From positions 1-49,106 of the forward strand of contig JAMPXM010000001.1 of assembly GCA_023701225.1 (NCBI GenBank): 49,106 nt of DNA. Reading direction: 5' to 3'. This document shows positions 6,642 to 45,543 of the stretch, piece after piece. The number at the start of each line of letters is the position of its first letter. Position 1 is the stretch's first letter. The position numbers were made by a program, and so were the translations under genes. A model generated the notes under the pieces. The model saw nothing but the letters and a program-made list of their open reading frames with translations. It had not been told where the DNA came from and searched no databases. Source of the stretch: Pseudobdellovibrionaceae bacterium. Its GTDB lineage: Bacteria; Bdellovibrionota; Bdellovibrionia; Bdellovibrionales; JAMPXM01.

Positions 6642-6668
6642 CCGGAACCTTCCGCGGCCCCGGAATCA

Positions 6669-26497: not shown

Positions 26498-27604
26498 TTA
26501 TGTCGTGAGCAAGTCTTGGGGAACCGCGCCGGCCACGATCGCCTTGGAAAGGCGGACATGGTCGGGATGTCCGACGATGCGACCGACTTCTTCCATGGGC
26601 AGAGGGTCCGGATGCGCGAGTTTTTCTTTTTTGAGTGCGAGAATCCGCTTGTGATTGTCTTCGACGACCTTCGCGTCGAGCTTTTTATCTTGAATCGCGG
26701 CGGCGATGGCCTCGACGGCGATCTTATGGCTTTCCGGTTCATTGCAGTAGAGCAAGATGTTCGCGCCGGCTTGGAGGGCGCGAACCGGAATCAGCGCTTT
26801 GTCGAAGTGTTTGGTCAGCGCTTTCATATCGAGGTCGTCGGTGATCACCAGATTGCGGTAGCGCAGCTGCGTGCGAAGCAGATCCGTGAGGATTTTTTGC
26901 GATAAGGTCGCAGGCCAATCCGGATCGAGCTTGGGAAACTTCACGTGCGTGGTCATGACCATATCCAGGCGCGCCCGGAAGACTTTCTTAAATGGCACGA
27001 GCTCGATCGCGTCCAGCTCGGCGAGGCTCTTTTCTTCGACTGGCAGCTCGAAGTGCGAATCGACGGGTGTATTGCCGTGGCCTGGAAAGTGCTTCGCGCA
27101 AGGAATGATGTCCGATTTGATATAGCCGCGCACGAGCGCGGAGCCTATACGACTCACAAGCTCCGGATCACTGCCCGCGGAGCGGTCGCCGATCGCCGGA
27201 TTGTCTTTGTTGGTCAGAACATCGATACAGGGTGCGAAATCGAGATTGATACCGACGGCGCGCAGCTCAGCTCCCATGAAGGACGCGAATTTGAACGCGA
27301 CCGAAGTCGAGTCCAGTTTACCAAGCTCAGCCACGGGTGGCCATTGCGTGAACGGCGCGCTCAGCCGTGCGACGCGTCCACCTTCCATGTCGATCGAAAT
27401 AAAAAGCGGGGCTTTGTCAGGTTGTTTGTGACGCAGGTTTTGCAGTTCAGCGACCAACTCGCGCACCTGCTGCGGGGATTCGCAGTTGCGCTTCATCAGG
27501 ATGATGCCGCCGATGTTGTTTTGGACGATGAAGTCGCTTTCGTCCTTGGTCAGCTTCGTGCCCTGCAGACCGATCACCAGCTGTTGTCCGATATACTGTT
27601 TCAA
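26498..27604 (-). CDS. nagZ: Beta-N-acetylhexosaminidase (GH3, NagZ-like)
   Basis: Motifs GGIILMKRN, SIDMEGGRVARL and KHFPGHG. TTG start at 27604 (no nearby in-frame ATG). Confidence 0.9.
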   Translation of the reverse strand: MKQYIGQQLVIGLQGTKLTKDESDFIVQNNIGGIILMKRNCESPQQVRELVAELQNLRHKQPDKAPLFISIDMEGGRVARLSAPFTQWPPVAELGKLDSTSVAFKFASFMGAELRAVGINLDFAPCIDVLTNKDNPAIGDRSAGSDPELVSRIGSALVRGYIKSDIIPCAKHFPGHGNTPVDSHFELPVEEKSLAELDAIELVPFKKVFRARLDMVMTTHVKFPKLDPDWPATLSQKILTDLLRTQLRYRNLVITDDLDMKALTKHFDKALIPVRALQAGANILLYCNEPESHKIAVEAIAAAIQDKKLDAKVVEDNHKRILALKKEKLAHPDPLPMEEVGRIVGHPDHVRLSKAIVAGAVPQDLLTT

Positions 27605-29505: not shown

Positions 29506-30630
29506 TCATTGCTTTTCGGGCGTGGCGCTCTTTTCGACTTTCGCTGGCGCCTCTGCTGACGTTTCCGCGGGGGCGGCATCCGGAGTTGAAGCTTGTGTGG
29601 GAGCCGGCGATGTATCGGCGGTCGCGGCCGGAGGTGTTATTGTCGGGGTCGTCTTGATCATCGCCTCTTGGCGTACCAACGCGTTTTGCTTTCCTTCCGG
29701 GATTTGGCCAAAAAGCGTGACGAGCATCGAGGGATTGAACGACTGTCCTGCGGTCGCTTCTTGCAGGGTAGGAACAAGTTCTGTCGCCAGTCCTTGGATC
29801 GTGGACCGCGTCGCAAGGACATCGCCTTTTTGCGTGACGAAGCTGGCGAAGCGCACGCCCTTGAATGTCATGAAGACCTTGAAGGCGGCGATTCCATTTT
29901 GCGCTTCCGGACTGACGATCTGCGCCTCGCCCGGATAAACAGCCGCATCCTCTTCGGCGATCGCGACGAAGGCATAACGTAAGCCCGGCTTAATACCGTC
30001 TTTGCTGTTGAGCATCATATAAACAAGAAAAGTAGATGGAAACGCGGTCTTGGGAATGGTCTTTCGTACGGTCGTGGACTTTCCGTCTTCGTTCACCACC
30101 GCTGTCATATTGTCACCGCGAAAGGACGCATCGATGGTTTTCGTTTTGCCGCCGACGATCGTGGTGTACTGGTAGCTGACGGGGCGGAAGCCGCTGGTCG
30201 CTCGCGCTTTGAGGCTCTCGGTGACGTGATTTCCGAGCGCGCCGGTTTTCAGAAAATACGTGGAGACGAATTCTTTCTTGGCCGCGTCAAATTCGTAGCG
30301 CGAAACCGTAAAGCCGATATGCACGCCGCCAAGCAGGACTTTGGAATAGCCTTCGAACAAGACTGCGTTCGCAGAAGCGATAGCTGCCGCTTTCGCGGCC
30401 GATTTTGCTTCCAGGCGAGGCGGCTTTTTGCCCGACTTCGCCGCTGGCGGAGCATTCGGAGTTTTCGCGGGTGTGGCCTTTGTCTCTGAGGATTTCGGAG
30501 CGGTCGTGACAGGTACGGTTTGCGTGGGAATCCCTTGTGCCTGAGCAGGTCCTGGTATGAGGCAGAGTGCACAAGCAGCGGAACAACCCATCACGAAGTA
30601 AGCCGCGACGCGGATACGAAGCCCGACCAT
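29506..30630 (-). CDS. Hypothetical secreted protein with low-complexity Pro/Ala/Lys and Thr/Pro/Ala termini
   Basis: ATG 30630 (AGGA 8 nt upstream) gives the signal peptide MVGLRIRVAAYFVMGCSAACALCLIPGPAQA. The ORF track starts at 30777. The central domain of about 230 aa is unrecognised. Confidence 0.65.
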   Translation of the reverse strand: MVGLRIRVAAYFVMGCSAACALCLIPGPAQAQGIPTQTVPVTTAPKSSETKATPAKTPNAPPAAKSGKKPPRLEAKSAAKAAAIASANAVLFEGYSKVLLGGVHIGFTVSRYEFDAAKKEFVSTYFLKTGALGNHVTESLKARATSGFRPVSYQYTTIVGGKTKTIDASFRGDNMTAVVNEDGKSTTVRKTIPKTAFPSTFLVYMMLNSKDGIKPGLRYAFVAIAEEDAAVYPGEAQIVSPEAQNGIAAFKVFMTFKGVRFASFVTQKGDVLATRSTIQGLATELVPTLQEATAGQSFNPSMLVTLFGQIPEGKQNALVRQEAMIKTTPTITPPAATADTSPAPTQASTPDAAPAETSAEAPAKVEKSATPEKQ

Positions 30631-30767
30631 AGTCCGATTCCTTTCGGTGGCCTTCCTTCCGCGCAGCCTCGGTTGGGATGCGTGTGAGTGGAGGCCTGCA
30701 GACGCGGCGTCGTGCCGCTCTTGCAGAGGATACCAAGCATCAATTCCCCGAAGCAACATGCGAGGGT

Positions 30768-30831
30768 GTTTCCTCAATTCGACATCGTGCTCAAGTCTAG
30801 ACGAATGAGCACTATTTCAAATTGAGGAAAC
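30768..30831. repeat. 64-nt near-perfect palindrome (long imperfect hairpin)
   Basis: GTTTCCTCAATT (30768-30779) pairs with AATTGAGGAAAC (30820-30831). Pairing continues inward with 3 mismatches through GTGCTCA/TGAGCAC, giving 23 of 26 stem positions paired. The element lies 31 nt upstream of the TadG-like start. Confidence 0.8.
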
Positions 30832-30862
30832 GCCCTACACTGAAGTGCCACGGGAGTCTGGG

Positions 30863-32950
30863 ATGAATCCGTTTACGCCAGCGAAGCGCTGCGGTGTCGC
30901 TTGCAATGAAAGCGGTCAGATGGCCGTGTTTATCGCGCTCATCTTTCAAGTGCTCTTCGTATTTTTCGCGATGGTGATCAACATCGGCTTGATCATCCAC
31001 GACAAAATCAATTTGCAGAACTCCGTCGATCTGGGTGCGTACTACGCGGCTCAGCGACAGGCGGAGATGCTCAACGAAATCGGCCACGTGAATTATCAAA
31101 TCCGTCAGGATTATAAGCTGCTCAGTTGGCGCTTGCGCGTGCTTGGCAATTTTGGCCGGAACAATCACCCAGCCTATCCGGAGCGTGCGGGATTGCCGGC
31201 AGCCGATGTTGCGAACCGGGATATGGAAGTCGCGGATTTTCCCGGCTTCTGTGTTTCACATCCCTACTGGCACGAATCGCGGCGCATATCCCCCCGGGAG
31301 AACATTTGCACGCAAAAACCGGAATCCACCATTCCGCAGATTCCTTCGATTCCGATCATTATCGATACCGGTGGTTTCAATGCGCCTGTTGCCTCGATCA
31401 TCGAGGGATACCGCGAAAGTTTCATGCGTGCTTGCGATGGAAAAGGCGCCTTCAATTGGCTCTTCGGTGCCAATTCGTTGATGGCTTTCCGAAAGTCCGT
31501 CGCCGCGCGCAAATCGATGATCCGCGCATTAGCGGAAAACCTGTCGCATCCGATCGCTCCTGACGGAAACACCATGCGCGATCTGAAGTTTGGGACCGTA
31601 TTCACCGGCGTATATCAAACTGTGAAAAAAAACATGACTCAGGCGAATCGGTCGTCGTTCGAAGATCCGACGCAGTTGACGATCGTGAACGGCTTATCTT
31701 TGCCCGGCTGTGGTGAGCACGTCGCGCAATTTCCCAACTGGCTCAAGGAGATCACGATCGATCCGGTTTTGACCTACACCAACATGATCGATATTCCGGG
31801 TGGGTGTAAAACGAGAATCGAATCTCTGTTCCGAGTTCCCGGCGTGGATGTGCCGGGCAATCTTCGTTACGTCGATCTTGGTGATCCTACGCGCGAACTT
31901 CGTTACTACGCTAAAAGCGAGCCGAATTTACCTGGGGATCCGCTGCGTTCATCCCGGGGCTTTGAGAAAAACCCATGGTGCATGGCGTATGTCGGCGTGA
32001 AAGCCGTCTCGCGCCCTCGTAAGCCGTTCAGTCCGTTCGGCTCGCCGATTCAGCTGACGGCGCGAGCGTTTGCTTCGCCTTTTGGCGGGCGGATCGGGCC
32101 TTGGGATAAAAAATCTTGGTCGCCGGGAGCTGACTTCTCCGGCGGAGAAATGACGGATCCTCTGGTGGTTCCGCGCACGGATCCAGGAAGACCGGTCGCC
32201 GATCGACAGGGCCGCCCGGAGTTTGTTCCCAACTATTCGCGTTTTCCAGGCGACAATCTGGGACTTAAATCCAACGCTGCGATGGCGGCGACGCGACCCG
32301 CGTTGATGGGAGCTATCGCCGAGGGTGGAGGTGCACTGACGGCGCAGTTCTACAGTCATCTGCCGTTCTTGGCGCAAACGGCGAACCCGATCGCCTGGAA
32401 CTCGCAGGCGGGGACACGCCCGAAGCTGGGTGCGGCGGAGATCGCGGCCGTTGCTCCTGACCTGTTCGATGTCACCTACTACTCCGTCGAAGCGGATTAT
32501 TTTGGAAACTACTATTGGTTGAGTTTAACGCCCGATCGGCGTCGCTATCGGCAAGAGGCGTTGCCCAATCAATTTTCAGATCTCGGCGCGGATGTCTCCG
32601 TGCCTGGGTTTCAGGCATTCAACGTGAAAAACCAAGTCGAAGTCGCGGTTCCGAACATTGAGCAAGGCGCGTATTGGATGGTGAGGGACCCCGCGCATAC
32701 GCTCACCGCTTGGACTCAAAAAGGCGCGGTCGATTTCGGATTCCCGAACAATCATTTTGGCCGGTGCCATGCCGCGCCGAACAAACAAGTGGGTCAGCCT
32801 CCGACGCTGGGCGACTGCATCGCCGGCGGTCGCACGGGGTATTCCGTGCGTCTCGTGCATCGTGAGTTTTTGATGTTCGGCGCGCACCGTCTCGGTGGAG
32901 CGGACGGCGCTTCTGCGCCTTTGAGAAACCCGCCGCCTTCGGATTTCTAG
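30863..32950 (+). CDS. TadE/TadG-like (Flp pilus assembly N-terminal domain) large exported protein
   Basis: ATG 30863 has GGGAG 6 nt upstream. The N-terminal SGQMAVFIALIFQVLFVFFAMVINIGLIIHDKINLQNSVDLGAYYAA matches the TadE/G-like membrane-anchor module. Length is 695 aa. No MIDAS motif seen. Confidence 0.75.
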   Translation: MNPFTPAKRCGVACNESGQMAVFIALIFQVLFVFFAMVINIGLIIHDKINLQNSVDLGAYYAAQRQAEMLNEIGHVNYQIRQDYKLLSWRLRVLGNFGRNNHPAYPERAGLPAADVANRDMEVADFPGFCVSHPYWHESRRISPRENICTQKPESTIPQIPSIPIIIDTGGFNAPVASIIEGYRESFMRACDGKGAFNWLFGANSLMAFRKSVAARKSMIRALAENLSHPIAPDGNTMRDLKFGTVFTGVYQTVKKNMTQANRSSFEDPTQLTIVNGLSLPGCGEHVAQFPNWLKEITIDPVLTYTNMIDIPGGCKTRIESLFRVPGVDVPGNLRYVDLGDPTRELRYYAKSEPNLPGDPLRSSRGFEKNPWCMAYVGVKAVSRPRKPFSPFGSPIQLTARAFASPFGGRIGPWDKKSWSPGADFSGGEMTDPLVVPRTDPGRPVADRQGRPEFVPNYSRFPGDNLGLKSNAAMAATRPALMGAIAEGGGALTAQFYSHLPFLAQTANPIAWNSQAGTRPKLGAAEIAAVAPDLFDVTYYSVEADYFGNYYWLSLTPDRRRYRQEALPNQFSDLGADVSVPGFQAFNVKNQVEVAVPNIEQGAYWMVRDPAHTLTAWTQKGAVDFGFPNNHFGRCHAAPNKQVGQPPTLGDCIAGGRTGYSVRLVHREFLMFGAHRLGGADGASAPLRNPPPSDF

Positions 32951-33039
32951 CCCAAAGTTGGGCGGTCTCAAAATGAGAAACGCGGAAGTGTCGAGTGCGT
33001 AGACAGCTGTTCAGCGTTCTTCGGCCATTTAAGCTGAGC

Positions 33040-33054
33040 TGGCACGTCAGTTGG
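33040..33054 (+). promoter_or_regulatory. Sigma-54-type promoter candidate (CTGGCACG-tcag-TTGG)
   Basis: TGGCAC at 33040-33045 and TTGG at 33051-33054, about 110 nt upstream of GTG 33164. Confidence 0.45.
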
Positions 33055-33163
33055 CGTAGAACATGAAGCGAATTCGAAGGCGGATGCATGCGGCGGAAAC
33101 ACCCCTTGTTCTTAAGCGATACAAAGCGCGTTCCGATAAGAAAAGAGAGTGGAGGGTTCGAAA

Positions 33164-34585
33164 GTGAAGACCAACACCCTGATTGTGACGGCACTGGTAT
33201 GGAGCGCGGGAAGCCTGGCGTACGCCGAAGGCGGGCAGTCGTTTCGCACCAACGGTTCGAGCTTTCTTCCATCCGCTGAAGAGTTGCAGCAACAGTGTTT
33301 ACGTTCCGGCGGTGTTTGGGGCGTAGGCGATTCTTGCGTGCGCGGCGAGGGCGGCGGTGGGGACACGAGTAACTCCGGCGCGAACGCGGCGCCGTCGGAG
33401 CCAGGCGGAATTGAGTCCGAGGGCGAAACAGGTGTGTGCGAGTCCGCGTACGACCGAGCCCGGCTGGCATGTGATCCGCTATCCGGCGCTGGCTTAAGTG
33501 CTGATCAGAGCGCTTTGGTCGAGGCTGCCGTCCAAGGAACCGCGATGGCCGCGGGCAGTATGGCCAATGCGGGCAAGAGCCCGCATGAGATGTGCTCGGC
33601 GGCCGAAGGGTTGACGAAAGTGATGATGGGGATTCAGGGTTCGCGCGCGGTCGCGTGCAAGGCCATGCAGAGTCGCTGTCTCAGTGTGTGCGAAGGTGAA
33701 ATTACCACTTACACTAACGCGCTCAGCACGTCCCAGCTCCAAGCAGCTGGAGCCGAAACTGTTCGCGCGCAGTACGAAGAGCAACTACGCAAAAGCAAAT
33801 CACATCGCCGCGCGTGCAATGCCTATGAAGAGAGTTTCGCTCGCCAGCTGATGCAAGCGCAGCAATATGCGAACAGCATGTTGCAATCACGCACCTGTGC
33901 GGAAATGACAAAGAACCAGGCGGTCGTGGCACAAAGCGGAACTCCGAACTGCGCCGACGAAACCGTTAAGCGCACCAATCCTTATTGCATCTGTCAGTCC
34001 AATCCGCGCGACGCGCGTTGCGGTTACAATCCGGGAGCATCAGGCACGTTGGGCGGTGGTGGTGGCGCCGCAGGCGGTATCGATGGCACTGCGGGACTCA
34101 CGTCTCTCGGTGACTCCGCTCTCGATGGCGAAGGCATGGGACCTGGTGGAATCGGATCGCGCAATGGCGCAAACGGGTCGGGTAGTAATAACGGCATGGG
34201 TGCGGGCGGCGGCGGAGGCGGCGGTCCTTCGTTGATCGGTGGCAGTGGCTTTGGCGGCGGCGCTGGCGGCGGTGGAGCCGGAGGCGTTCGCGCGGGTACG
34301 CAAGTGATCCAAGGTGTTTCTGGCGGCGGTAGTTTTGCCGGCTACGGTCGCCCCGGCGGCAATGGCGAGGGTTCCGGTGGCAACAGTTCGTGGATGAGCA
34401 AACTCAAGGCGAAGTTCAATATCAAGGATGCTCTACCTGACAAGAACAAGCTGGCGCGAGGTTTGGCGGGCATGGGTGCCAACGCGGCTGCGGACGGCAT
34501 CACGGGCGCCATGGGCGAATCGATTTGGCAAAAGGCTTCTCGTCAGTACCGCAGCCAAGAGCGCGGTGGCGGCTTCTTGAAATGA
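33164..34585 (+). CDS. Hypothetical secreted Cys-containing, poly-Gly protein (paralog A)
   Basis: GTG 33164 has GGAGGG 7 nt upstream. Signal peptide (M)KTNTLIVTALVWSAGSLAYA, a helical Cys-bearing middle, long Gly runs (GAGGGGGGGPSLIGGSGFGGGAGGGGAGG) and the C-terminal motif IWQKASRQYRSQ. Confidence 0.7.
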   Translation: MKTNTLIVTALVWSAGSLAYAEGGQSFRTNGSSFLPSAEELQQQCLRSGGVWGVGDSCVRGEGGGGDTSNSGANAAPSEPGGIESEGETGVCESAYDRARLACDPLSGAGLSADQSALVEAAVQGTAMAAGSMANAGKSPHEMCSAAEGLTKVMMGIQGSRAVACKAMQSRCLSVCEGEITTYTNALSTSQLQAAGAETVRAQYEEQLRKSKSHRRACNAYEESFARQLMQAQQYANSMLQSRTCAEMTKNQAVVAQSGTPNCADETVKRTNPYCICQSNPRDARCGYNPGASGTLGGGGGAAGGIDGTAGLTSLGDSALDGEGMGPGGIGSRNGANGSGSNNGMGAGGGGGGGPSLIGGSGFGGGAGGGGAGGVRAGTQVIQGVSGGGSFAGYGRPGGNGEGSGGNSSWMSKLKAKFNIKDALPDKNKLARGLAGMGANAAADGITGAMGESIWQKASRQYRSQERGGGFLK

Positions 34586-34596
34586 GCGGGGGACGG

Positions 34597-35706
34597 ATGA
34601 GCTTCAGCGCGAAAGCGGCGAAGGTAGGGATCGTTTCGTTTGCGGCGTTTACGCTTCTTGTGCCATTGGCAACCAGGGCTCAGAGCTCCGCGGCACGGGG
34701 TACAACGACGACGACGGCCGGGTCTACGACGACCGCGACGGCACCGACGAAGACCACTTCGACGACAACCACATCAAACACGACGCAGACGACATCGCCG
34801 ACGAGCACTAACCAGTACGGATATGGCCCTAGTTCCGGCAATATGAATTCAGGCGCCAAAGACTCGAAGAACCAAGCGATAATGGGTGTTGCACTTAACG
34901 GCGTGACCGCCGCGATGTGGTTTGGGAAGTGTTCAAGTAACAACTATTACGCCTGTGTCCTGGGTGCCATGCATGTCGTCCAGGCGGGAATGATGCTTCA
35001 AGGAGCGAAGGGCGCGGGCAAGACGCAGGCGGCAACGATGTATGGTGCCGCTGGAAGTTTTGGTTATGATCAGTATGGTGATTACGGTGCGGATGGCGCA
35101 GGAGCCGGCGCGGACATGGATGGTAATGGGATTCCGGATGCCCAAGAGATGCGTGCGTACAATGCACAGCTCAATCGAGAAGAGCAGAAACTCAATGATC
35201 TGCGCTCTAAGTTCGCCAACTTAGGCTACACCGTCAGCGCGGATGGAAAGTCGGTTACTTTGCCGAACGGCAAAACAGTGCCGACCTCTGCTTTTACGAG
35301 CAAGCAAGGTCTGATGGGTCTCGGACTGACGGCGGACCAGATTGCGAGTTACGAACAGGACAAGGCCGCGATCGCGGCCTCGCTCAAAGAAAAGGCCAAG
35401 GCGCTCACTGCCGATGAAGGTGGGGGCGGTGGCGGTGGAGCCGGTGGTGGTGGTGCGTTCGGACGTCGCGGGCGTGGCGCGGGTGACGAAAACCAGGGTT
35501 TCAATTACGGCAGTCTGTTTGGCGATAAAAAAGACCGCAAAACCGCGAGCGTCAAAGGACTGTCCAAGCAGTTGGGCAATGATCGGATTGGGGTCCAAGC
35601 GGACAACATCTTCGAGATGATGACTCGTCAGTACAAGAAAGAAGAAGGCAAGCAGAGCTTCATCGCGCCCGTCGGCGCCGCAGTTCCAGCTACGGTCGGC
35701 CCGTAA
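34597..35706 (+). CDS. Hypothetical secreted Thr-rich, poly-Gly protein (paralog B)
   Basis: ATG 34597 has GGGGGA upstream; ATG 34582, overlapping the upstream stop as ATGA, is the alternative. Signal peptide, Thr-rich tract, GGGGGGGAGGGGAFG run and the C-terminal motif IFEMMTRQYKKE. Confidence 0.7.
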   Translation: MSFSAKAAKVGIVSFAAFTLLVPLATRAQSSAARGTTTTTAGSTTTATAPTKTTSTTTTSNTTQTTSPTSTNQYGYGPSSGNMNSGAKDSKNQAIMGVALNGVTAAMWFGKCSSNNYYACVLGAMHVVQAGMMLQGAKGAGKTQAATMYGAAGSFGYDQYGDYGADGAGAGADMDGNGIPDAQEMRAYNAQLNREEQKLNDLRSKFANLGYTVSADGKSVTLPNGKTVPTSAFTSKQGLMGLGLTADQIASYEQDKAAIAASLKEKAKALTADEGGGGGGGAGGGGAFGRRGRGAGDENQGFNYGSLFGDKKDRKTASVKGLSKQLGNDRIGVQADNIFEMMTRQYKKEEGKQSFIAPVGAAVPATVGP

Positions 35707-35729: not shown

Positions 35730-36719
35730 CTAAACAAGGATTTGGTTCTGGATCGCGGCTCCATCCGCGAGCTGAGACATCGGCAGCAGAATGCTGTTCT
35801 CGATGCGGCAGCGGGATCCAATTTGGCAATGATCTCCGAGGACCGCGAATCCCCGGAATTCGGAATGTGTGGACGTGTCAGGTGGCACCGGACTCCAAAC
35901 GCGCGCTTGTGGCGTCAGGTGGAGGCCGTCTTGCGGTCGAAAGCGCTCACGAAGCACACGGAAAAAAGGTGACTCCTGCGCGGTCCCGAGAGATTGCATC
36001 ATTTGCCTCGTGGCTGAGAGAAAATCCGGAACATTGCCGGTTTCAAACCAAGTGCAAGTGTCTTCGAAAACCCGCACGCGCTCACCAGCCTTGATGCCGG
36101 CCATGAGCGCGTCATAAAGAAGATTGCTCTCGCCTTCGGGCAGGAAGCGAAAAATCCGGCCCGAGAGCGCGAGAACGCCGACGTAATGAAAGCCAATCGT
36201 GTCAGACGGAACGCCTTGTGGGCGCTGTTTACCGAAACCCAGGACCGCGCCATCGGCACGTGTCCAAACACCGCCGAACCGTGTGCCGACGTCTGCATGG
36301 CGAGTGACGTAAATCGTGGCCAGCGCGCCGGAGGCCCGATGTGCATGCATCAGATCACCCGCGATGGACGCGCGCGACGGAAAAATCACCTCATCACCGT
36401 TGGCAACGAAGAAATCCGTCTCGCGTTCCAAGTGCGCACGCGCATTCCAAACTCCGCCACCGCTGCCGAGCGGTTGGCCATCTTCGTGCGTGATCTGGAC
36501 TTGGCCACGATAGCCGGGAATCGAGTGTACGAGCCGCTCGATTTGTTCCGGCTTGTAATGAGTATTGACCACCAGGCACGAAAGTCCGGCGGGCTCCAAT
36601 AGAGTGAACGGGTAATAGAGCAAAGGGATATTCATAAATGGCACGGCAGGCTTGGCGTACCGGTCCGTGACCGGACGTAGGCGAGTGCCAAGGCCTGCGG
36701 CGAGCAGCATCAGCTTCAT
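35730..36719 (-). CDS. Sugar-phosphate nucleotidyltransferase (MurU-like by context)
   Basis: N-terminal MKLMLLAAGLGTRLRPVTDRYAKPAVPF (GxGTRL NTP-transferase motif). Length is 329 aa. ATGA overlap with the upstream kinase-like gene. Confidence 0.8.
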   Translation of the reverse strand: MKLMLLAAGLGTRLRPVTDRYAKPAVPFMNIPLLYYPFTLLEPAGLSCLVVNTHYKPEQIERLVHSIPGYRGQVQITHEDGQPLGSGGGVWNARAHLERETDFFVANGDEVIFPSRASIAGDLMHAHRASGALATIYVTRHADVGTRFGGVWTRADGAVLGFGKQRPQGVPSDTIGFHYVGVLALSGRIFRFLPEGESNLLYDALMAGIKAGERVRVFEDTCTWFETGNVPDFLSATRQMMQSLGTAQESPFFRVLRERFRPQDGLHLTPQARVWSPVPPDTSTHSEFRGFAVLGDHCQIGSRCRIENSILLPMSQLADGAAIQNQILV

Positions 36720-37762
36720 GGGGAGTCGAACTTTCGCGCGAAAATGCCGTGGCCTTCCATGATGTCGAGGAAGGCTTTGTATTCCGGGAAATAGCCAAGG
36801 CTTTTACGCACCGTCTGCAGTGTGTGCGCGATATATTTCAAATAGCGCGTGTCCTGCCGGAGATTGAAAAAGCTCGCGAAGCTGCCGCAAGCTTTAAAGC
36901 AGCGCTGAATCGTCTGCGTTTCGTAGATTTCATCGAAATGATCGCGGCTGATCGCGGGCAGTTGAAGCGGGGCCTCAAACTCCTGGCGGCGTTCGAGATA
37001 GTACGACAAAAGTTCGCGTGCAACGCCATCATCGATCCGGACGTACGAATCTCGCAACAGACTGACGAGATCGTACTGAACTGCGCCCATGCGTGCGTCT
37101 TGAAAGTCGATCACGCGCATCTTACCGAGCTTGATCATCACATTGCGGGAATGGTAATCCCGGTGCGCGATGAATTTGGGCTCTTCGTGCAAGCGGGTGC
37201 AGACCTTTAAAAACACCTCGTCCAGTGCCTTGGATTGTGATTCGGTCAGACGCAGACCACATAATCCCGCTAAAAGGTGTTCACGCCCATAGTTCATTTC
37301 CCAGAGAAGCTTGTCGACATCGAACGCGACCTTGAACGCGACGCAATCTGTTTCGTCCGCGGACGCAGGGTAGTGAATCTTGATCAATTCATCGATGGCC
37401 TGTTGATACGCCGGAATGATGAGTTGCTGATTCTGATTTTCCCAGAACTTGCGCTCCAAAGTCAGATCGCCGAGATCTTCGAGTAGGATCAAGCCTTGAC
37501 TCGGAGATTTCGCGAGGACGCGTGGAACATGAACATCGTGTTTCGCGAAATGGTCGAGGACGCTGAGAAACGGGTAGCGGTGATTGTCCGTGAAGGGCTC
37601 CCACACCATGAGCACGGAGCTCTCTTCACCGGCCACGACCCGAAAGTAGCGGCGTGAAGAGGCGTCGCCAGCCAGCTGGAAGATTTCGAAGCTCTCGCTC
37701 TGGAGCGCTTCCGCTAAGAAGTTTTGAAACGTCGCATGGATTTGCGGCGAAACCAAGTTCAT
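36716..37762 (-). CDS. Aminoglycoside-phosphotransferase-fold kinase (AmgK-like anomeric sugar kinase by context)
   Basis: APH/ChoK-fold catalytic motifs HRDYHSRNVMI and VIDFQDA. Length is 348 aa. Confidence 0.8.
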   Translation of the reverse strand: MNLVSPQIHATFQNFLAEALQSESFEIFQLAGDASSRRYFRVVAGEESSVLMVWEPFTDNHRYPFLSVLDHFAKHDVHVPRVLAKSPSQGLILLEDLGDLTLERKFWENQNQQLIIPAYQQAIDELIKIHYPASADETDCVAFKVAFDVDKLLWEMNYGREHLLAGLCGLRLTESQSKALDEVFLKVCTRLHEEPKFIAHRDYHSRNVMIKLGKMRVIDFQDARMGAVQYDLVSLLRDSYVRIDDGVARELLSYYLERRQEFEAPLQLPAISRDHFDEIYETQTIQRCFKACGSFASFFNLRQDTRYLKYIAHTLQTVRKSLGYFPEYKAFLDIMEGHGIFARKFDSP

Positions 37763-38006: not shown

Positions 38007-38027
38007 GGTTAGTGCAGGGTTAGTGCA
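38007..38027. repeat. Tandem 10-mer GGTTAGTGCA x2 (period 11) spanning a stop codon
   Basis: Copies at 38007-38016 and 38018-38027. The TAA stop of the 38020-38979 gene lies inside the second copy. Confidence 0.8.
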
Positions 38028-38979
38028 TAGTCGGCTGATCGTCGTCGATGAGACTTTTGTGGAAGGGCACGAAGCGAGTTTCTTGCTCCGGAGCGCGTCC
38101 ATCGATGAGCAGGCGCATGCTTTTGCGGATCGTGAGAGAGTCGTTGTCTTGCGGATTCCAAGGCATCCGCGCATATGTCAGTGCCGCACGCAGTCCCGCA
38201 TCAAGATCACCACGTTCTTCGAGAACGTCCGGATCCTCGTGAATCGCGGCGAGAATGAGCGGTGTTTCCTCACTGGGCAAAGAGCGAACGAAGGCGGCGA
38301 GCTGCGCTTGGCGTTCCAGCGAGAGCTGAGTCAGATCCTCGATGAACAATGTGATCGCACCGAGCTGTTTCCAGGTTTCGCGTGAATCCAAGGAATCGTG
38401 CGGAAGATCCGTCCATGCGACGAATGCCCAGCGTTCGGTGCGCGAGTGAACTTCGCTCGCGAATTGTTGCACGGGGAAGCCGGGCTTGACTTGAATCATC
38501 AATGACGGCGCATTGATCTTGGGAGGCGGCGGAACCGGCCAAAGATGTTCCGACTGCGGCAGTCGATTGCGGCGCAAAGGAATCACGTTTTTCGGCATCG
38601 TTTGCATTTGCAGATGCTCTTCCGTTCGGCGCAACACTTCACCTTGGTCGTTCGTGCCTGACAAACGGCGCTCGATCAAAGCTGCGGCGAAATCCGCCAA
38701 ATCAAACACGCGCCGGGAATCGGCTAATCGCCATTCGCTGACAATGGCGAGGCCAGCCAGCGCGTTTTGCGGATCGCGAACCGGAAAGCCGATACTGCGT
38801 CCTTGTTGATCTGTCAGGTAAGGGGGAGCACCACTCGCACGACCGGCGATGGCGGCCAATTCATCCGCGCCCCAGGTTTCGACATCGATCTGCGCTAATG
38901 GAACGTAGGTCAGCCGGCTGCCAACTAAGCTGGAAAAGATCTGATTGAGTCGTACAAGAAGTGCATCCATATCGTTCAC
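38020..38979 (-). CDS. Degenerate sigma-54 activator-like protein (AAA+ remnant lacking Walker A and GAFTGA)
   Basis: GAITLFIEDLTQLSLERQAQLAAFVRS and PLILAAIHEDPDVLEERGDLDAGLRAAL align by eye to the Walker-B/sensor segments of sigma-54 activators. The Walker-A position reads LMIQVKPGFPVQQFASEVH. GTG 38979 has GGAGG upstream; ATG 38970 is the alternative. Confidence 0.65.
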   Translation of the reverse strand: MNDMDALLVRLNQIFSSLVGSRLTYVPLAQIDVETWGADELAAIAGRASGAPPYLTDQQGRSIGFPVRDPQNALAGLAIVSEWRLADSRRVFDLADFAAALIERRLSGTNDQGEVLRRTEEHLQMQTMPKNVIPLRRNRLPQSEHLWPVPPPPKINAPSLMIQVKPGFPVQQFASEVHSRTERWAFVAWTDLPHDSLDSRETWKQLGAITLFIEDLTQLSLERQAQLAAFVRSLPSEETPLILAAIHEDPDVLEERGDLDAGLRAALTYARMPWNPQDNDSLTIRKSMRLLIDGRAPEQETRFVPFHKSLIDDDQPTMH

Positions 38980-39318: not shown

Positions 39319-40503
39319 TCAAGCGTGAGGACGAGAAGAGGTCGTCCCCGCCTGGTGCCAAGCCTGATGATGCGCCCGACAAAGTGTGAGGAGATTGTCC
39401 ACAGCATCGGTCCCACCTTCTGAGCGCGGGGTGAGGTGATGAACCTCGAGCCAAACGCGTGAGCCACAGACAGCACCATCCGGAAGTCGCGCCTGACATG
39501 AGCCCTGATCACGTAGATGGACGTGATGCTGACTGGCCGCAGGCAAGGGACGACGCCGAGATTGTGGCGTCGTTCGAAGACTGGGTCTGCACGAGGTGTG
39601 GAGCGAAAATTCGGGAGAACCCTGATGTGCCTGCTTTTCTAGGAATGACAAAGCAACCTCCGAGGTCCTTGCCCGGGCAAGTTTTTCGTCTGAAGGCGAG
39701 GGCGTTACAAAGCCTGGAGCTTGGTCGTGCGTATTTGTTGCTGCATTGCCTAGCACTGGAGTCTGACTCGCCTCTGTGGTTTCGGTCGCCCCAAAGTTCG
39801 CTATAGAAGTCGCTACAGTTACGTCATGTCCGAAGCCGGAGATAGAATCCGTTCTTCGCCGCCTCCGTTCTGCCCGCTCAGCTCGCCGAACAGGATCTTT
39901 TCTCTGCAAATAAAACTCAGCCAGAGATTCAATAGCGTGCTCCAAAGACACCCATTCCCTTTGCGAAGAGGACATCAGCTCCCGCACCCGCTCCAGTTTC
40001 CTATAGCCTGATTCCGAGAGCGGAGTACTGAGCTCCAAGGTGTGCGCATCCAGAAACCGAGCTTGCTCGGGCCGAGCCGCTCGCGGATTGACGCGTGCAA
40101 CTTCGCGCTCCAAATCCCGCTTGGGCAACTCGAGCGCAAGCCCGATCCATTTCCGCTGATTCTCTCCGTTGATCACTGAAGTGATCCGAACGGCTTTCGA
40201 AACGGTGAGTTCGCCAGCCGTAATGGCTTGCTGCAACAGCGGCAACTCACGTGCTTTTCTCGCGACGGTGATATAGGCATAGCTTTGCGCTTCAGAAAGT
40301 TTCAGCGCTCGCATGGCATACTGGTGTAAATTGTTATAGCCGAGAAATCGATGCACCAGAAACCGATCGACCTCCTGCAGACAAAGAATAAGTTCCGCTT
40401 CACAGGACTTGAGTTTCGCGACGACCTCACAGGTGCGTGAGTGAATGGCGCGGAGGGATTTTTCGTTCTGCGTTTTCTGAACTTCATTGAGGCGTGTGAA
40501 CAT
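39319..40503 (-). CDS. HNH endonuclease (DUF222-type architecture)
   Basis: ATG 40503 has AGGAG 5 nt upstream; the ORF track starts at 40560. The C-terminal HNH motif is CGSRVWLEVHHLTPRSEGGTDAVDNLLTLCRAHHQAWH, preceded by a helical N-terminal region and a low-complexity linker. Confidence 0.85.
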   Translation of the reverse strand: MFTRLNEVQKTQNEKSLRAIHSRTCEVVAKLKSCEAELILCLQEVDRFLVHRFLGYNNLHQYAMRALKLSEAQSYAYITVARKARELPLLQQAITAGELTVSKAVRITSVINGENQRKWIGLALELPKRDLEREVARVNPRAARPEQARFLDAHTLELSTPLSESGYRKLERVRELMSSSQREWVSLEHAIESLAEFYLQRKDPVRRAERAERRRRRTDSISGFGHDVTVATSIANFGATETTEASQTPVLGNAATNTHDQAPGFVTPSPSDEKLARARTSEVALSFLEKQAHQGSPEFSLHTSCRPSLRTTPQSRRRPLPAASQHHVHLRDQGSCQARLPDGAVCGSRVWLEVHHLTPRSEGGTDAVDNLLTLCRAHHQAWHQAGTTSSRPHA

Positions 40504-40919
40504 GCGCTCTCCTGGTTCTGCGACCGGACTCTGTCGCCCACGGCGAGAGCACCTTAACACGGGTTTTTGAGATCAAAATCTTCGCTCACATTCTCGCTTG
40601 ATGGTATCAAGCCAGGAGACCCTGCGAAACGCGACTCGCACATAAAAAACACCTCACAGAGGCCGTATACGTGCGTATAAGTACGACGCCCGCGAACGAA
40701 CCGAAATCCCCTTTTGCGTGGGCAAATCTCTCAAAACGCCTTGTCAAACAAATTTTCATCGATAACGGAAAAAGTTCGGATTTGGGCGGTTGGACATAAA
40801 CAGAATCAAATTATAAAATTTGATCTAACCACAAGTCGATTTCTTCAATGTCTGCATCATATTGAGCATCATTCTGCTCTCCAAAGGAGGGGTCGCGCGT
40901 CGGAACTACAAGGCTTGAG

Positions 40920-41106: not shown

Positions 41107-42663
41107 TTAAGGCTTCAAAAGCCGGCGTTTATCCAGCCCGTACTTTTCTACCTTCATGATCAGGCCCGCGCGGCTGATGCCGAGTTCTTTGGCGAGTTTG
41201 GACTTGTTCCAACCGGTGCGGCGCAAGCCTTCCTTGATCAATTCGCGTTCCAGATCTTCGAGCGCGTCCTTGAGTTTGCCGTGGACGCGAGCGCCTTGGA
41301 CTTTGCCCTTTTCCGAAGCTTCAAGAATCTTCGGCGAGAGCATGTCGGCCGTGAGTTTCGTTTCCACGCCTGAAAGAACGACGAGTCTTTCCATTTCGTT
41401 CTGCAGCTCGCGGACGTTACCAGGGAACGGATAGTCGTACAGTTTCTCAAGTGCCCGCTTGGTGAGAATCTTCTTGGGCGCGCCTTTCTCGGCGGCTTTA
41501 TTCAAGAAAAATTCTGCGAGTAGCGGAATATCTTCTTTGCGCTCGCGGAGCGGGGGAACACGAATGTTGATGACGTTCAGGCGATAGTACAAGTCTTCGC
41601 GGAAAGTGCCCTGCTCCACCATCTCTTTGAGGTGGCGGTTGGTCGCCGCGATGATGCGGACATCAATTTTTCGTGTTTCGAGGCCGCCGACCGGCATGAA
41701 CGTGCCTTCCTGAAGAACGCGCAGGAGTTTCACCTGCATTTGCGGTGATGTGTCGCCGATTTCGTCGAGGAAGAACGTACCCTTGTCCGCGATTTCGAAG
41801 AGACCTTTTTTGTCGCGGTTTGCGCCGGTGAATGAGCCCTTCATGTGACCGAAGAGTTCCGACTCCAAGAGGTTGTCGTTGAACGCCGAACAGTTTTGAA
41901 TCACGAATGGCTTATCTTTGCGGGCTGAGTTGTAGTGAATCGCCTTGGCGATCAATTCCTTACCCGTTCCGTTTTCACCTTGCACCAGAACCGTGGAATC
42001 GGCGCCCTTGATTTTGTCGAGCAGTGCGTAGAGCGACTGCATCGGTTTGGACTTACCGATCATGTTGTCATACTTGTAGCGCGAACCGAGTTCTTTATTG
42101 AGTTCGCGGATGCGGTTCTCGCGCGTCGTGATCTCGACGTGCAGAGTGACCACCTCTTGAGCCACCAATTCGACAAGCTCCACGAAGTGATCGCGGTCGC
42201 TGTCGTCGAGGAATTTCACCTTCGAGAGAGACTGTTCGATCGTGTCGCCCGAGGCGCCGAATGCGGCAAGACGCTCGCGCATTTCTTGCAGTCGGTTGCC
42301 TGCGCCGGAATCCTTCATGAAGCCCGTCGCGACGACCGTGCCCATGAAGTCGTTGTCGATCATGATCGGAAAGATCGCCACATCGAATCCGGCCATGTCC
42401 CATTTGCGGACCGAGTAGCGGTTTTCGGATAAGCGGAGATCGTCAATGCTCTTCGTGACCATTTCGGCCAAGCTCTCCAGTGCCGCTTCTTTGTTGAGAA
42501 ACGCATTGACCGCAGGATTGCAAAGTGGGGTTTTCGTGCGGTCGAATCCGCGCAGGTGACCACGCTCATCCGTGAACACGACATCGATGTTCCACCAAGC
42601 GGCGAGGATCTGCTTGAGCTTCTTGATGACGTGTATATGTTCGAACTCATCCCAATTGATCAT
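41107..42663 (-). CDS. Sigma-54-dependent Fis-family transcriptional activator with a non-receiver sensory N-terminus
   Basis: Walker A VLVQGENGTGKELIAKAIH, ESELFGH, GSFTGA (GAFTGA loop), TFFLDEIGD and the C-terminal Fis-type HTH SKLAKELGISRAGLIMKVEKYGL. GAGGAG is the RBS. The N-terminal 170 aa or so look like a PocR-type sensor (memory-based). Confidence 0.93.
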   Translation of the reverse strand: MINWDEFEHIHVIKKLKQILAAWWNIDVVFTDERGHLRGFDRTKTPLCNPAVNAFLNKEAALESLAEMVTKSIDDLRLSENRYSVRKWDMAGFDVAIFPIMIDNDFMGTVVATGFMKDSGAGNRLQEMRERLAAFGASGDTIEQSLSKVKFLDDSDRDHFVELVELVAQEVVTLHVEITTRENRIRELNKELGSRYKYDNMIGKSKPMQSLYALLDKIKGADSTVLVQGENGTGKELIAKAIHYNSARKDKPFVIQNCSAFNDNLLESELFGHMKGSFTGANRDKKGLFEIADKGTFFLDEIGDTSPQMQVKLLRVLQEGTFMPVGGLETRKIDVRIIAATNRHLKEMVEQGTFREDLYYRLNVINIRVPPLRERKEDIPLLAEFFLNKAAEKGAPKKILTKRALEKLYDYPFPGNVRELQNEMERLVVLSGVETKLTADMLSPKILEASEKGKVQGARVHGKLKDALEDLERELIKEGLRRTGWNKSKLAKELGISRAGLIMKVEKYGLDKRRLLKP

Positions 42664-42755: not shown

Positions 42756-44057
42756 TCAGTGCTGGTCCAACGTCTTGATAGGAGGGGAGTGCTGTGTGCT
42801 TTCGTCTCGGTTCGAGGCGTCTGCAGAATGGCCAGCCGGTCTTCGATTGGGGGCCTGTCGCAATTCCGACGACGATTGGGTTTTCAGTGAATTCAAACCA
42901 TCGAGAAGCGTGGCGAGCTCTCCCCAGGTTGACGAGCCATCGGAAGAGGGTTCGGTGATGACGCCTGTTGCGGAGACGCCGCGACCTTCGATCGTGAGCG
43001 CGCGGTATGCGTTCAGCCTTGTTTTGTACTTGGTCTTCCCAATGAGCCGCGTGTCGACATCTCCGGTCAGCGTCAGTGTTGATACGAGGTGTTCGGGCCT
43101 TCGTTGCAATCCGTATTTGGCCATCGCTAGGGCCGCGACGCCGCTGGCAAAAGCCGTGGCCTGTGAGGTGCCCGTGAGTTGACCATATCGTCCTCCCGGA
43201 AGCGTGGAGTAAATGTCTTTGCCGGGCGCGGCCAAATCAACGGTCTGTGCGCCGTAATTCGCGCTGGGCAAAAGGACGCGCTTTTGATCGAAGGCCGTCA
43301 CGGAAAGGATATTGTTGAGATCGTAGTCGGCCGGGTAGTACGGAAGTCGATCCGAGTTGGACTTTTCATTTCCGGCAGCCGCGATCAGGAGAACTCCTTT
43401 TTCGCCCGCCTCACGGATTGCCGCCTGCTCTTCGTCGCTCGGCGCGGGGCCGCCGGCAGAGTAATTGATGATGTGTGCGCCCATACGAGTCGCGTAGCGG
43501 ATCGCCGCGACGGTATTGGCAACCGGATTTCCGGATTCGCCTGCGGGTTCGATATACTTCAATGGCATCAAAGTCACTTGTGGACACACACCGCGAACAC
43601 CTCGCCCAGCGACACCGTCCGCTCCGATGATACCGGCGATATGCGTTCCATGACCATGTCGGTCCGAGACGTCTGGAGAATGGGCCGCGAAATTCCAACC
43701 GTTCACGTCGTCGATATATCCGTTGCGGTCGTCGTCCACTCCGTTGGATTCCTTCTTGCGACCATTTCGATCGATTCCCGATTCTCCGGGGTTGGTCCAA
43801 ATATTGGCCTTTAAGTCCGGATGCTGAATATCGATGCCGGTGTCGATGACCGCGACAATCACAGTGCGCGCGCCGCTGGTGATACGCCACGCCCGCATGG
43901 CTTCGGTTGTCTCCTGTCCCCAATAGCGTGCCGCGGCTTGGTCGCGCTGTAAAACATCATACTTCTCTGTCGGCTGTGTCTCTCCGGTGGCAACTTGGCG
44001 TGAGGGTGTGTGCATCATCCAAAATAGGAGCGCCGGGAAAATCAAAACGGATTTCAT
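42756..44057 (-). CDS. S8 family (subtilisin-like) serine peptidase, secreted
   Basis: Catalytic triad contexts VAVIDTGIDIQHPDL, HGHGTHIAGIIG and GTSQATAFASGVAAL. Signal peptide MKSVLIFPALLFWMM. About 100 aa of C-terminal extension. Confidence 0.92.
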   Translation of the reverse strand: MKSVLIFPALLFWMMHTPSRQVATGETQPTEKYDVLQRDQAAARYWGQETTEAMRAWRITSGARTVIVAVIDTGIDIQHPDLKANIWTNPGESGIDRNGRKKESNGVDDDRNGYIDDVNGWNFAAHSPDVSDRHGHGTHIAGIIGADGVAGRGVRGVCPQVTLMPLKYIEPAGESGNPVANTVAAIRYATRMGAHIINYSAGGPAPSDEEQAAIREAGEKGVLLIAAAGNEKSNSDRLPYYPADYDLNNILSVTAFDQKRVLLPSANYGAQTVDLAAPGKDIYSTLPGGRYGQLTGTSQATAFASGVAALAMAKYGLQRRPEHLVSTLTLTGDVDTRLIGKTKYKTRLNAYRALTIEGRGVSATGVITEPSSDGSSTWGELATLLDGLNSLKTQSSSELRQAPNRRPAGHSADASNRDESTQHSPPIKTLDQH

Positions 44058-45316
44058 GATCCCGCCATTCTGTTCGGGGTGAGAAGTGATTGCAGCGTGA
44101 TGGCGACTTCAGACAAAAGGGTCGCGTCTCGGAGGGATGAGTGGACTTGCATGCGCCCCTGGGCGTCGTAGCGGAGGAGGATGCGGCCGAAGCCAGGACG
44201 TAAAATTTGTGCCGGTCGCCGCGTCTCGCGTTCGTAAATCAACCGTAATTGCTCGCGACCGGACTCGAAAATCGAGATCAGGCGTCCACGCGCGTCGTAA
44301 AACAAATGATAGGTTTGCCCAGCACCCGTCGTGACTTGAGCCGGGAGACCATGGCGTGGATCCAACGAAGTTTCCGTGACCGACTTGAAACTGACATCGC
44401 GAGTACGAATCAGAGCAAGAGAGCCGTCCGCATCGCGCCGCCACCAATACTCGAATTTGCGTCGTTGAGTCGGCGCACCCTTACATCGGAATTGACTCTC
44501 TGTCGTCTGTCCCACTTCGCCCTGTGCGGAGAGGGACGAGTAGGTGTATTCCGTCACGCAGCCTTCGGAGTCTTTCCAGCGCATCACACGGTCATGTTCT
44601 GTATCGTAAGTGAGCTCCTCAGAGAGGCCGTCAGCGGATTGAATTCGACTGAGGTTATGGAGCTGGTCGTACCGGTACGCATGGACATGGCCTTTGGAAG
44701 AGCGCGCTCGGATGAGATCGGGTCCGGAGTATTCGTACCATGCGATGGAGCCGTTCGAAGAAATCACGCGCGTGATCTTTTGAGTCTTTTCGTCGTAAAC
44801 GAGGCGCAGTTTCGTAGGGCCGGCGCGAAGTTCTTCGAGTCGGCCGAGTGATGAGTAGCTGGTCTCGATCGGCCACCTCCCTGTGCGGATCCATGTCCGC
44901 AACCGACCCGAGCTTGCAAACACTTGCCGATCTCCCGAGGTGAGAAACCGAATGTGTTGTTCACGAGAAATGATGATTTTTTCACCGGGGCGCCGAGGGT
45001 GCAGGTATTCACCGGTCGGACTGAGCGCATAGACCAAATCTCCAGATTCGCAATCACGCAAAAGGAGCCGACGATCATCGAGCCGTTCCAAAAGGATTTC
45101 AAAACGGGTGCACCATCCGAAACCGAACAGCCCGTTGTACTGGGTGCGGCTCCTGTAAACACGCGAGAGCGCGAGTGCGCCCGGCGGGCCGGTCTCGATA
45201 TCCGTCCACTCATTGGAGTAGCCGGCGTCTTTGAGATCCACACCGGCGGATGCGGGAAGAGCGAGGGCGAAGTGAAATGCGACTTGAAAAAGAAAGCAAA
45301 AGAGAGGCGTCTTCAT
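44054..45316 (-). CDS. Short secreted YD/RHS-repeat protein
   Basis: ATG 45316 gives the signal peptide MKTPLFCFLFQVAFHFALALPASA; the ORF track starts at TTG 45361. YD-type repeats: YRYDQLHNLSRIQSADG, LTYDTEHDRVMRW, LFYDARGRLISI and LRYDAQGRM. The stop overlaps the S8 start (ATGA). Confidence 0.8.
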   Translation of the reverse strand: MKTPLFCFLFQVAFHFALALPASAGVDLKDAGYSNEWTDIETGPPGALALSRVYRSRTQYNGLFGFGWCTRFEILLERLDDRRLLLRDCESGDLVYALSPTGEYLHPRRPGEKIIISREQHIRFLTSGDRQVFASSGRLRTWIRTGRWPIETSYSSLGRLEELRAGPTKLRLVYDEKTQKITRVISSNGSIAWYEYSGPDLIRARSSKGHVHAYRYDQLHNLSRIQSADGLSEELTYDTEHDRVMRWKDSEGCVTEYTYSSLSAQGEVGQTTESQFRCKGAPTQRRKFEYWWRRDADGSLALIRTRDVSFKSVTETSLDPRHGLPAQVTTGAGQTYHLFYDARGRLISIFESGREQLRLIYERETRRPAQILRPGFGRILLRYDAQGRMQVHSSLRDATLLSEVAITLQSLLTPNRMAGS

Positions 45317-45543
45317 GCCCGACGGTTTTGCAAACGCGTGCCCGCGCCAAAAGCCATTCAAACGGAGGTTGGCGCTTGCGACCTCGACGTCTGCCGATCA
45401 AATTCTATGCATAGTGAGTGAGCGGACGCTTGTCGCCAAGATCGGCGTACGTCCGCTCGTGAGATCAACTGTCAGTTCGCACTGCGGATGTCGAAGGTCA
45501 GCGAACCTGAGCGAATCTTTGACAGGCGAAAATCATAAGTAGT

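Follow-up and report, generated by a model that had tools for sequence, protein, structure and literature searches.

The A-B Locus

This study concerns two neighbouring genes, here called A and B, on contig JAMPXM010000001.1 (assembly GCA_023701225.1) of a Pseudobdellovibrionaceae bacterium, an uncultured Bdellovibrio-like predatory bacterium; the stretch analysed, hereafter the window, spans 49,106 nucleotides (nt). Both genes are open reading frames (ORFs) on the same strand (table 1). The most plausible start of gene A is a GTG, with GGAGGG 7 nt upstream of it (Shine-Dalgarno sequence, 33151-33156). The main start of gene B lies 11 nt past the gene A stop, while an alternative ATG at 34582 overlaps that stop as ATGA; an earlier interpretation made from the letters of the window (the sequence-only reading) had given both arrangements exactly. 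The public gene call for B (P0010, 274 amino acids, aa) begins at the internal Met96 and so lacks both signal peptide and Thr-rich region; the longer ORF is supported by homologues that measure 340-362 aa and carry signal peptides.

Both proteins have the same overall layout, with a signal peptide, a distinctive middle (14 cysteines in protein A, a Thr-rich stretch in protein B), a Gly-rich stretch and a C-terminal tail. The uninterrupted glycine runs of the sequence-only reading are there, runs of 7 Gly occurring in A and B alike, and runs of at least 5 Gly are found in 90% of A-family and 70% of B-family members. The tails that it quoted, with their I[WF]xxxxRQY[RK] motif, are likewise present in both. 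The predicted signal peptides, Sec-like by sequence features, are MKTNTLIVTALVWSAGSLAYA ahead of EG in A and ...LVPLATRA ahead of QS in B. A hydrophobic, signal-peptide-like segment opens 25 of 29 A-family and 91 of 96 B-family members (116/125 together), and no segment outside the N-terminus reaches transmembrane-like hydropathy. Export of both proteins, also proposed earlier, thus appears probable from the N-termini of A, of B and of most of their relatives.

Table 1. Features at and around the A-B locus; positions refer to the window.
Feature	Position	Strand	Description
Gene A	33164..34585	+	GTG 33164 to TGA 34585, 473 aa; homologues P0002-P0009
Gene B	34597..35706	+	ATG 34597, 369 aa; homologues P0011-P0019
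Protein A, parts			Predicted signal peptide aa 1-21 (AYA then EG); variable 22-87; Cys-rich long-helix core 88-290; Gly-rich disordered linker 291-408; C-terminal module 416-473
Protein B, parts			Predicted signal peptide aa 1-28; Thr-rich 29-82; helical core 83-274; Gly-rich linker 275-300; C-terminal module 301-358; variable last 11 aa
C-terminal module of A	34409..34582	+	aa 416-473; A4 tail profile E 5.8e-24
C-terminal module of B	35497..35670	+	aa 301-358; A4 tail profile E 2e-25
Sigma-28 (FliA)-type promoter	33112..33138	+	TTAAG-N16-CCGATA, TTAAGCGATACAAAGCGCGTTCCGATA
Palindrome	32966..32978		TCTCAAAATGAGA; candidate operator
Sigma-54-like site of the sequence-only reading	33040..33055	+	TGGCACGTCAGTTGGC; judged not functional
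TadG-like gene	30845..32950	+	701 aa from GTG 30845; ATG 30863 behind GGGAG more likely start
GH3/NagZ-like gene	26498-27604	-	
MurU-like nucleotidyltransferase gene	35730-36719	-	
AmgK-like kinase gene	36716-37762	-	
Gene order left of A			GH3/NagZ-like (-), two ABC permeases (-), DUF3108-like (-), TadG-like (+)
Gene order right of B			MurU-like (-), AmgK-like (-), degenerate sigma-54-activator-like (-), HNH (-), NtrC-type activator (-)

A Shared C-Terminal Module on Two Different Bodies

The similarity of the two tails, noticed in the sequence-only reading, survives both a shuffle test and profile-profile comparison. Aligned with each other, the two window tails reach a Smith-Waterman score of 50, a value matched by 1 of 5000 shuffles (shuffle mean 23.8, sd 4.5; these two tails only). 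When the family profiles from a first homologue search (8 sequences for A, 9 for B) were compared with hhalign, only the last 59 columns aligned (probability 95%, E 3.7e-8). Once the alignments had been enlarged to 29 A-like and 96 B-like sequences, the tails matched each other at a probability of 97.5% (E 6.3e-12) and the cores at 0.5% (E 0.12). Whole-protein BLASTP of A against B with composition adjustment returned nothing significant, tails included, and the likeness becomes visible only on comparing tails or family profiles. Since only the tail aligns and the cores do not, A and B are not paralogues as wholes; the earlier description of the two as paralogous proteins stands for their tails and fails for their cores. 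A and B have a homologous C-terminal module and the same layout, on unrelated bodies.

The module is about 55 residues long, with the signature G[LM]S ... D-x-I-(T)-G ... I-[FW]-x-x-[AVM]-x-x-x-Y. A tail profile of 63 positions, searched against a library of 1.84 billion representative proteins (clusters at 50% identity), matched 1036 clusters at E<=1e-3 and 207 at E<=1e-10. From the end of the module to the C-terminus the distance is a median of 1 residue and at most 33 (165 sequences). Among the best 150 matches only two architectures were seen, A-like (12-18 Cys, 390-640 aa) and B-like (2-5 Cys, 270-410 aa). In both families the module is the most conserved region, with a commonest-residue frequency of 0.69 in A and 0.53 in B, compared with 0.40 and 0.33 for the less conserved cores; both the N-terminal regions and the Gly linkers vary, the linkers in length.

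The sequence-only reading recognised no family for either protein, in agreement with our searches. Pfam and NCBIfam scans of A and B found none, the tail profile matched no PDB sequence, a homologous-protein search with the tail alignment returned short fragments only, and look-ups of the clusters that match the module gave no informative names. A 'New_glue' Pfam match on the Thr-rich stretch of B was set aside as sub-threshold and low-complexity. The 16 loci that come from species-representative genomes all lie in metagenome-assembled genomes (MAGs) named as Bdellovibrionales, Bdellovibrionaceae or Pseudobdellovibrionaceae, and every locus with a taxonomic name is from a Bdellovibrionales MAG; one MAG contig is labelled Pseudomonas, and mis-binning is suspected. 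By these searches, the module and both families appear undescribed in the libraries covered, widespread in metagenomes and lineage-restricted.

To our eye, the DG[IV]xG of the tail, together with its helix, recalls PG_binding_1, a presumed likeness that scans with hidden Markov models (HMMs) do not support. The tail could on that account be a divergent peptidoglycan-binding motif that anchors both proteins to the cell wall, at a locus set amid peptidoglycan-recycling genes (NagZ-, AmgK- and MurU-like); MurU-like and AmgK-like genes lie directly downstream of B, and convergent with it, in most of the loci surveyed for gene context (the window and 29 related loci, L001-L029). However, none of 19 isolated tails matches PG_binding_1 (PF01471) at E<=10, the full proteins give no match at E<=0.1, the tail profile again has no PDB counterpart to offer, and, besides being convergent with B, murU and amgK are missing beside the A-B unit in L011 and L017. 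We consider such an anchor very improbable. A functional tie between A-B and these peptidoglycan-recycling neighbours was also considered and, on the same grounds of orientation and absence, judged to be synteny only.

Predicted Structures of the Heads, Linkers and Tails

An AlphaFold 2 (AF2) model of A, built with the A-family alignment, places the core (residues 88-290) at a predicted local distance difference test score (pLDDT) of 75-97, with helices at 113-134, 140-188 and 197-255; residues 289-408 are predicted as a disordered linker (pLDDT below 50), and the tail is modelled, at low confidence, as helix-containing. Ten cysteines are invariant and 2 near-invariant among 26 A-family sequences, which presumably fits a disulfide-stapled protein in an oxidising compartment. 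In the AF2 model of B, pLDDT is 75-90 at residues 90-140 and 190-270. The first of these parts belongs to a confidently predicted helical hairpin (83-148), moderately hydrophobic and capped by Cys-x7-Cys, with two near-invariant Cys in the connecting loop; region 182-274 holds further helices and a small beta-hairpin, followed by the disordered Gly stretch. Foldseek searches of both models against the PDB returned generic helical bundles only (E>0.4), and no fold was assigned.

The distribution of order and conservation bears on the function first proposed for these proteins, an extracellular matrix or fibre role. In such a role A and B would be a self-assembling pair of major and minor subunits, comparable with curli CsgA and CsgB, in which the Gly regions form the polymer. 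A pair that is adjacent, co-conserved, exported and of low complexity would suit such a role, and the tails could mediate head-to-tail polymerisation. Yet the Gly regions are the least alignable parts of both proteins, vary in length and contain short GGC/GGT tracts without periodic or amyloid-like repeats, whereas the conserved parts are the helical globular cores and the tail; they look like variable-length linkers between conserved domains. Neither curlin nor any other fibre family is matched. Compared with a curli-type functional amyloid pair, which has imperfect Q/N/G-rich repeat units and a csg-like set of export genes, the two proteins show no repeat units beyond those short tracts and no Pfam match, and their neighbours are unrelated to csg. 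We do not retain the fibre proposal, which we find improbable.

Conservation of the Gene Pair

In the context survey, A is directly followed by B in the window and in L001, L005, L006, L007, L010, L011, L015, L017, L018, L021, L023, L024, L025 and L029; with a divergent A-B-type pair in L027 there are about 16 A-B loci, the window included. Homologues of the two genes are thus adjacent to each other in many genomes, and the pair is dedicated, as the sequence-only reading had supposed, and co-inherited. Other arrangements also occur. A is found without B in L002 (a lone A-like protein, P0008) and in L022 (TadG-like, A, then MurU-like), B without A in L003, L004 and L020, and two B-like genes in L013 and L014. 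In the metagenomic locus L021 (4890-8758) the order is TadG-like, A, A, B, with two tandem A-like genes, an expansion of the unit by duplication. In L027 (5864-9149) a 707-aa protein of A-like layout precedes the divergent B-like protein; its parts are a signal peptide, a helical region rich in Cys, a stretch rich in Gly and Ser and a degenerate tail (SNWEKVKRMY), and it was assigned as A-like by eye, the A and tail HMMs missing it. Upstream of the lone P0008 of L002 lies a 549-aa protein (6269-7918) with about seven Cys-rich repeats of about 50 aa (C.FNGQT..HG.SV.AY...), and a flagellar rod gene cluster is found 2.5 kb downstream.

The flanks of the pair change from one lineage to another. 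In L007, L011, L017 and L027 the A-B unit has unrelated neighbours (Ddl, a trypsin-like protease and UDG among them), and so, in L002, does the A-like gene; the unit retains its promoter and its palindrome where the flanking genes differ. The stable unit is A-B itself, and its TadG and MurU/AmgK neighbourhoods are clade-level synteny. Because promoter and palindrome are kept despite different flanks, we take the unit to be autonomous.

An Attack-Phase-Type Promoter and a Candidate Operator

Upstream of gene A lies a perfect copy (0 mismatches) of TTAAG-N16-CCGATA, TTAAGCGATACAAAGCGCGTTCCGATA, the sole match in the window. This consensus summarises 140 attack-phase promoters mapped in B. bacteriovorus and was attributed to FliA/sigma-28 (Karunker et al. 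2013, PMC3627812); the FliA promoter class drives most attack-phase genes of that species, and its regulon includes cell-surface proteins and many uncharacterised ones (PMC3627812). In the window the spacing is suitable: the -10 box ends at 33138, ahead of the Shine-Dalgarno sequence and the GTG of gene A, with a predicted transcription start at about 33146 and a predicted 5' untranslated region of about 17 nt. In 13 loci a close variant of the motif stands no more than about 70 nt from where the first A/B gene is predicted to start, and an exact copy, together with a variant of the palindrome, precedes the divergent pair of L027.

The palindrome, in its strict form (G)TCTCA-N3-TGAGA(C), precedes the -35 box by 46-172 nt in 10 of the 13 loci, against 7 other strict matches in 303 kb. 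Besides the window (TCTCAAAATGAGA) it occurs in L001, L006, L007, L010, L011, L013, L014, L017 and L025, and L021 and L027 have relaxed variants of it. We take the palindrome for the probable operator of some regulator, and its conservation suggests a second regulatory input. Another copy stands at 2539-2551 in the window, about 50 nt ahead of a nitroreductase gene whose likely ATG is at 2588.

The sequence-only reading had instead placed the pair behind a sigma-54-type promoter, TGGCACGTCAGTTGGC. This site reads TTGG where the consensus has TTGC, departing from the GG-N10-GC core; a search with TGGCAC-N5-TTGCW allowing up to 1 mismatch does not recover the site at 33040, and the orthologous upstream regions contain no counterpart. 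Sigma-54 control of A and B was therefore rejected, a conserved sigma-28/FliA-type promoter being in place. Neither a sigma-70-like promoter nor an Rfam element was found in the region. The main corrections to the first description of the locus are the change from sigma-54 to sigma-28 and the restriction of the shared part to the tail.

A Proposed Model: Two Heads on a Common Docking Tail

Taken together, we tentatively favour, at a probability of roughly 0.45, a model in which A and B are two modular exported envelope or surface proteins whose helical heads sit on glycine tethers and share a C-terminal docking module, produced from an attack-phase operon. The two genes would form an operon of Bdellovibrionales that is autonomous and read from a promoter of the FliA (sigma-28) type, and expression of the operon in the attack phase is what this promoter class would predict. 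Both products would be exported by Sec. The head of A would be a bundle of long helices with 10-12 conserved cysteines, presumably disulfide-bonded, and that of B a helical domain with a Cys-capped, semi-hydrophobic hairpin; in each protein the Gly-rich stretch would act as a flexible tether of variable length. The tail of about 55 residues, which would end in an amphipathic helix, is most likely a common docking or anchoring domain, and may fix the two different heads to the same partner in the envelope or on the surface of the predator. The occurrence of loci with B only, B-B, A-A-B or A only is better accounted for by a common partner or by self-association than by an obligate A-B heterodimer.

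Several points weigh against this model. The expression, localisation and binding that it assigns to A and B are inferred, and the partner is hypothetical; the signal peptides are predictions from sequence features; and AF2 confidence for the module is low in both proteins (pLDDT 45-68). Moreover, an invariably C-terminal tag, preceded by a linker and carried by unrelated passengers, also resembles a secretion or sorting signal. The module might then be read after Sec export by a dedicated outer-membrane translocation or attachment machinery, in the manner of the C-terminal domain (CTD) of the type IX secretion system (T9SS), and A and B would be released or surface-attached effectors. Besides the position of the module at the extreme C-terminus, behind a disordered linker and on unrelated passengers, this possibility draws on Foldseek matches of B to the alpha-pore-forming toxins AhlB, SmhB and ClyA; these matches are very weak and not significant (all E>5). 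In this view the semi-hydrophobic hairpin of B could insert into prey membranes. True sorting tags usually mark many cargo types, whereas here two passenger architectures make up the best 150 matches. In addition, no transporter is conserved beside the A and B genes, and NCBIfam models of sorting signals give no match. We consider a sorting signal unlikely.

The preferred model, that of tethered heads on a docking tail, can be set against several known systems. TolA and the filamentous-phage protein pIII combine helical or globular domains with poly-glycine linkers and a small C-terminal docking or anchoring domain, and the layout of A and B is alike; the likeness does not extend to sequence, nor to fold as far as can be detected. 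The anchor of TolA is an N-terminal transmembrane helix, while A and B look soluble after cleavage of the signal peptide. As with T9SS CTD, PEP-CTERM and LPXTG proteins, A and B are exported, differ in the rest of their sequence and end, after a linker, in a conserved tag. Known C-terminal sorting domains (T9SS CTD, PEP-CTERM, GlyGly-CTERM and others) have NCBIfam/TIGRFAM models and, for the most part, a C-terminal transmembrane helix; A and B show neither a match to such models nor a C-terminal transmembrane segment, and no cognate machinery was seen nearby. RTX substrates of type I secretion, with their GGxGxD nonapeptides, uncleaved C-terminal signal, lack of a Sec signal peptide and adjacent ABC/MFP transporter, differ in that A and B have Sec-type N-termini, no Pfam RTX repeat match, no 9-residue (27-nt) periodicity and no transporter beside them. 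In terms of regulation, the closest comparison is with the FliA attack-phase genes of B. bacteriovorus (PMC3627812), whose consensus the A-B promoter matches exactly; the A-B locus differs in its extra conserved upstream palindrome, and the likeness is one of promoter sequence.

The molecular means by which Bdellovibrio-like predators recognise, attach to and enter their prey are as yet poorly resolved, the majority of attack-phase genes being annotated as 'hypothetical'. What is new here is a C-terminal module without a model in the databases, together with the widespread but lineage-restricted exported pair that carries it; to this pair the promoter region would give a regulatory assignment, in the form of a FliA-type attack-phase promoter and a conserved operator-like palindrome. 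The pair is a solid lead for predation biology, its role in predation being hypothetical. Should A and B turn out to be merely structural periplasmic proteins, they would constitute a modest new domain family.

The TadG-Like Neighbour

In the window the gene directly upstream of A encodes a protein with an N-terminal hydrophobic helix, ESGQMAVFIALI, that matches Pfam Tad (PF13400) at E 6.6e-7 and 30 bits, above the cut-off of 22.3; its large C-terminal part contains no known domain. No other tad genes were found in the window, and the orphan TadG-like protein of the sequence-only reading is thus upheld. Its N-terminus is of the type found in TadG, a large minor pilin described as the backbone of Tad tip complexes (PMC12075869), and it stands alone, away from other tad genes, as does the lone tadG of B. 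bacteriovorus (bioRxiv 10.64898/2026.07.08.737194).

Such an adjacency invites a different view of the pair, as accessories that decorate the tip of the predatory Tad pilus: A and B would be Sec-exported non-pilin proteins that dock through their tails onto the lone TadG-like minor pilin and serve in prey recognition or invasion. In favour of it, a TadG-like orthologue lies directly upstream of A not only in the window but in eight further loci (L001, L005, L006, L010, L021, L022, L025, L029) and upstream of B in L020, TadG is described as the backbone of the tip in known complexes, and no clear terminator follows the TadG-like gene. However, the A-B unit has its own conserved promoter, and direct adjacency is confined to one clade (nine loci besides the window), with no TadG-like gene found within 5-10 kb upstream of the unit in L007, L011, L017, L027 or L002. 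The co-occurrence with TadG thus holds as adjacency within that clade and fails as a tight link. In L013 and L014 the pair formed by the TadG-like and DUF3108-like genes is inverted as a block, pointing away from B. Compared with Tad pilins, A and B have Sec-type signal peptides and no prepilin-type N-terminus, with no match to TadE (PF07811) or Tad (PF13400). We regard tip accessories as an unlikely explanation, and still a little less likely the fuller picture in which A and B plug via the module into the lone TadG tip pilin, two heads on Gly leashes forming the prey-contacting end of an invasion machine; if it were true, the published tadG depletion phenotype might partly reflect the loss of A and B as partners.

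The DUF3108-like gene (29506-30777, - strand) forms a divergent pair with the TadG-like gene, and the two occur together in every locus that has either, a linkage tighter than that of TadG with A and B. Upstream of the TadG-like gene the palindrome is found only in the window (a weak copy), L010 and L025, so co-regulation of that gene with A and B is not established. The TadG-like gene is a neighbour, not demonstrably part of the A-B unit. In one clade, nevertheless, the pair lies beside a lone gene of the TadG class, which was recently implicated in prey invasion, and the two proteins are therefore sensible candidates for envelope or pilus-tip accessory factors.

Other Genes of the Window

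Beyond the genes considered above, the rest of the window consists of housekeeping genes, with a few further observations to the right of the pair. A 319-aa protein encoded at 38020-38979 (- strand) has a weak Sigma54_activ_2 match (E 0.003) and keeps its place, in conserved synteny, beside a full NtrC-type sigma-54 activator (41107-42663, - strand); it is perhaps a degenerate paralogue. Only in the window are the two separated by an HNH endonuclease gene (39319-40560). Further on, at 42756-45361 (- strand), a subtilase (S8) gene is followed by a gene for an RHS-repeat/DUF6531 protein, a stretch that could be a polymorphic-toxin-type locus.

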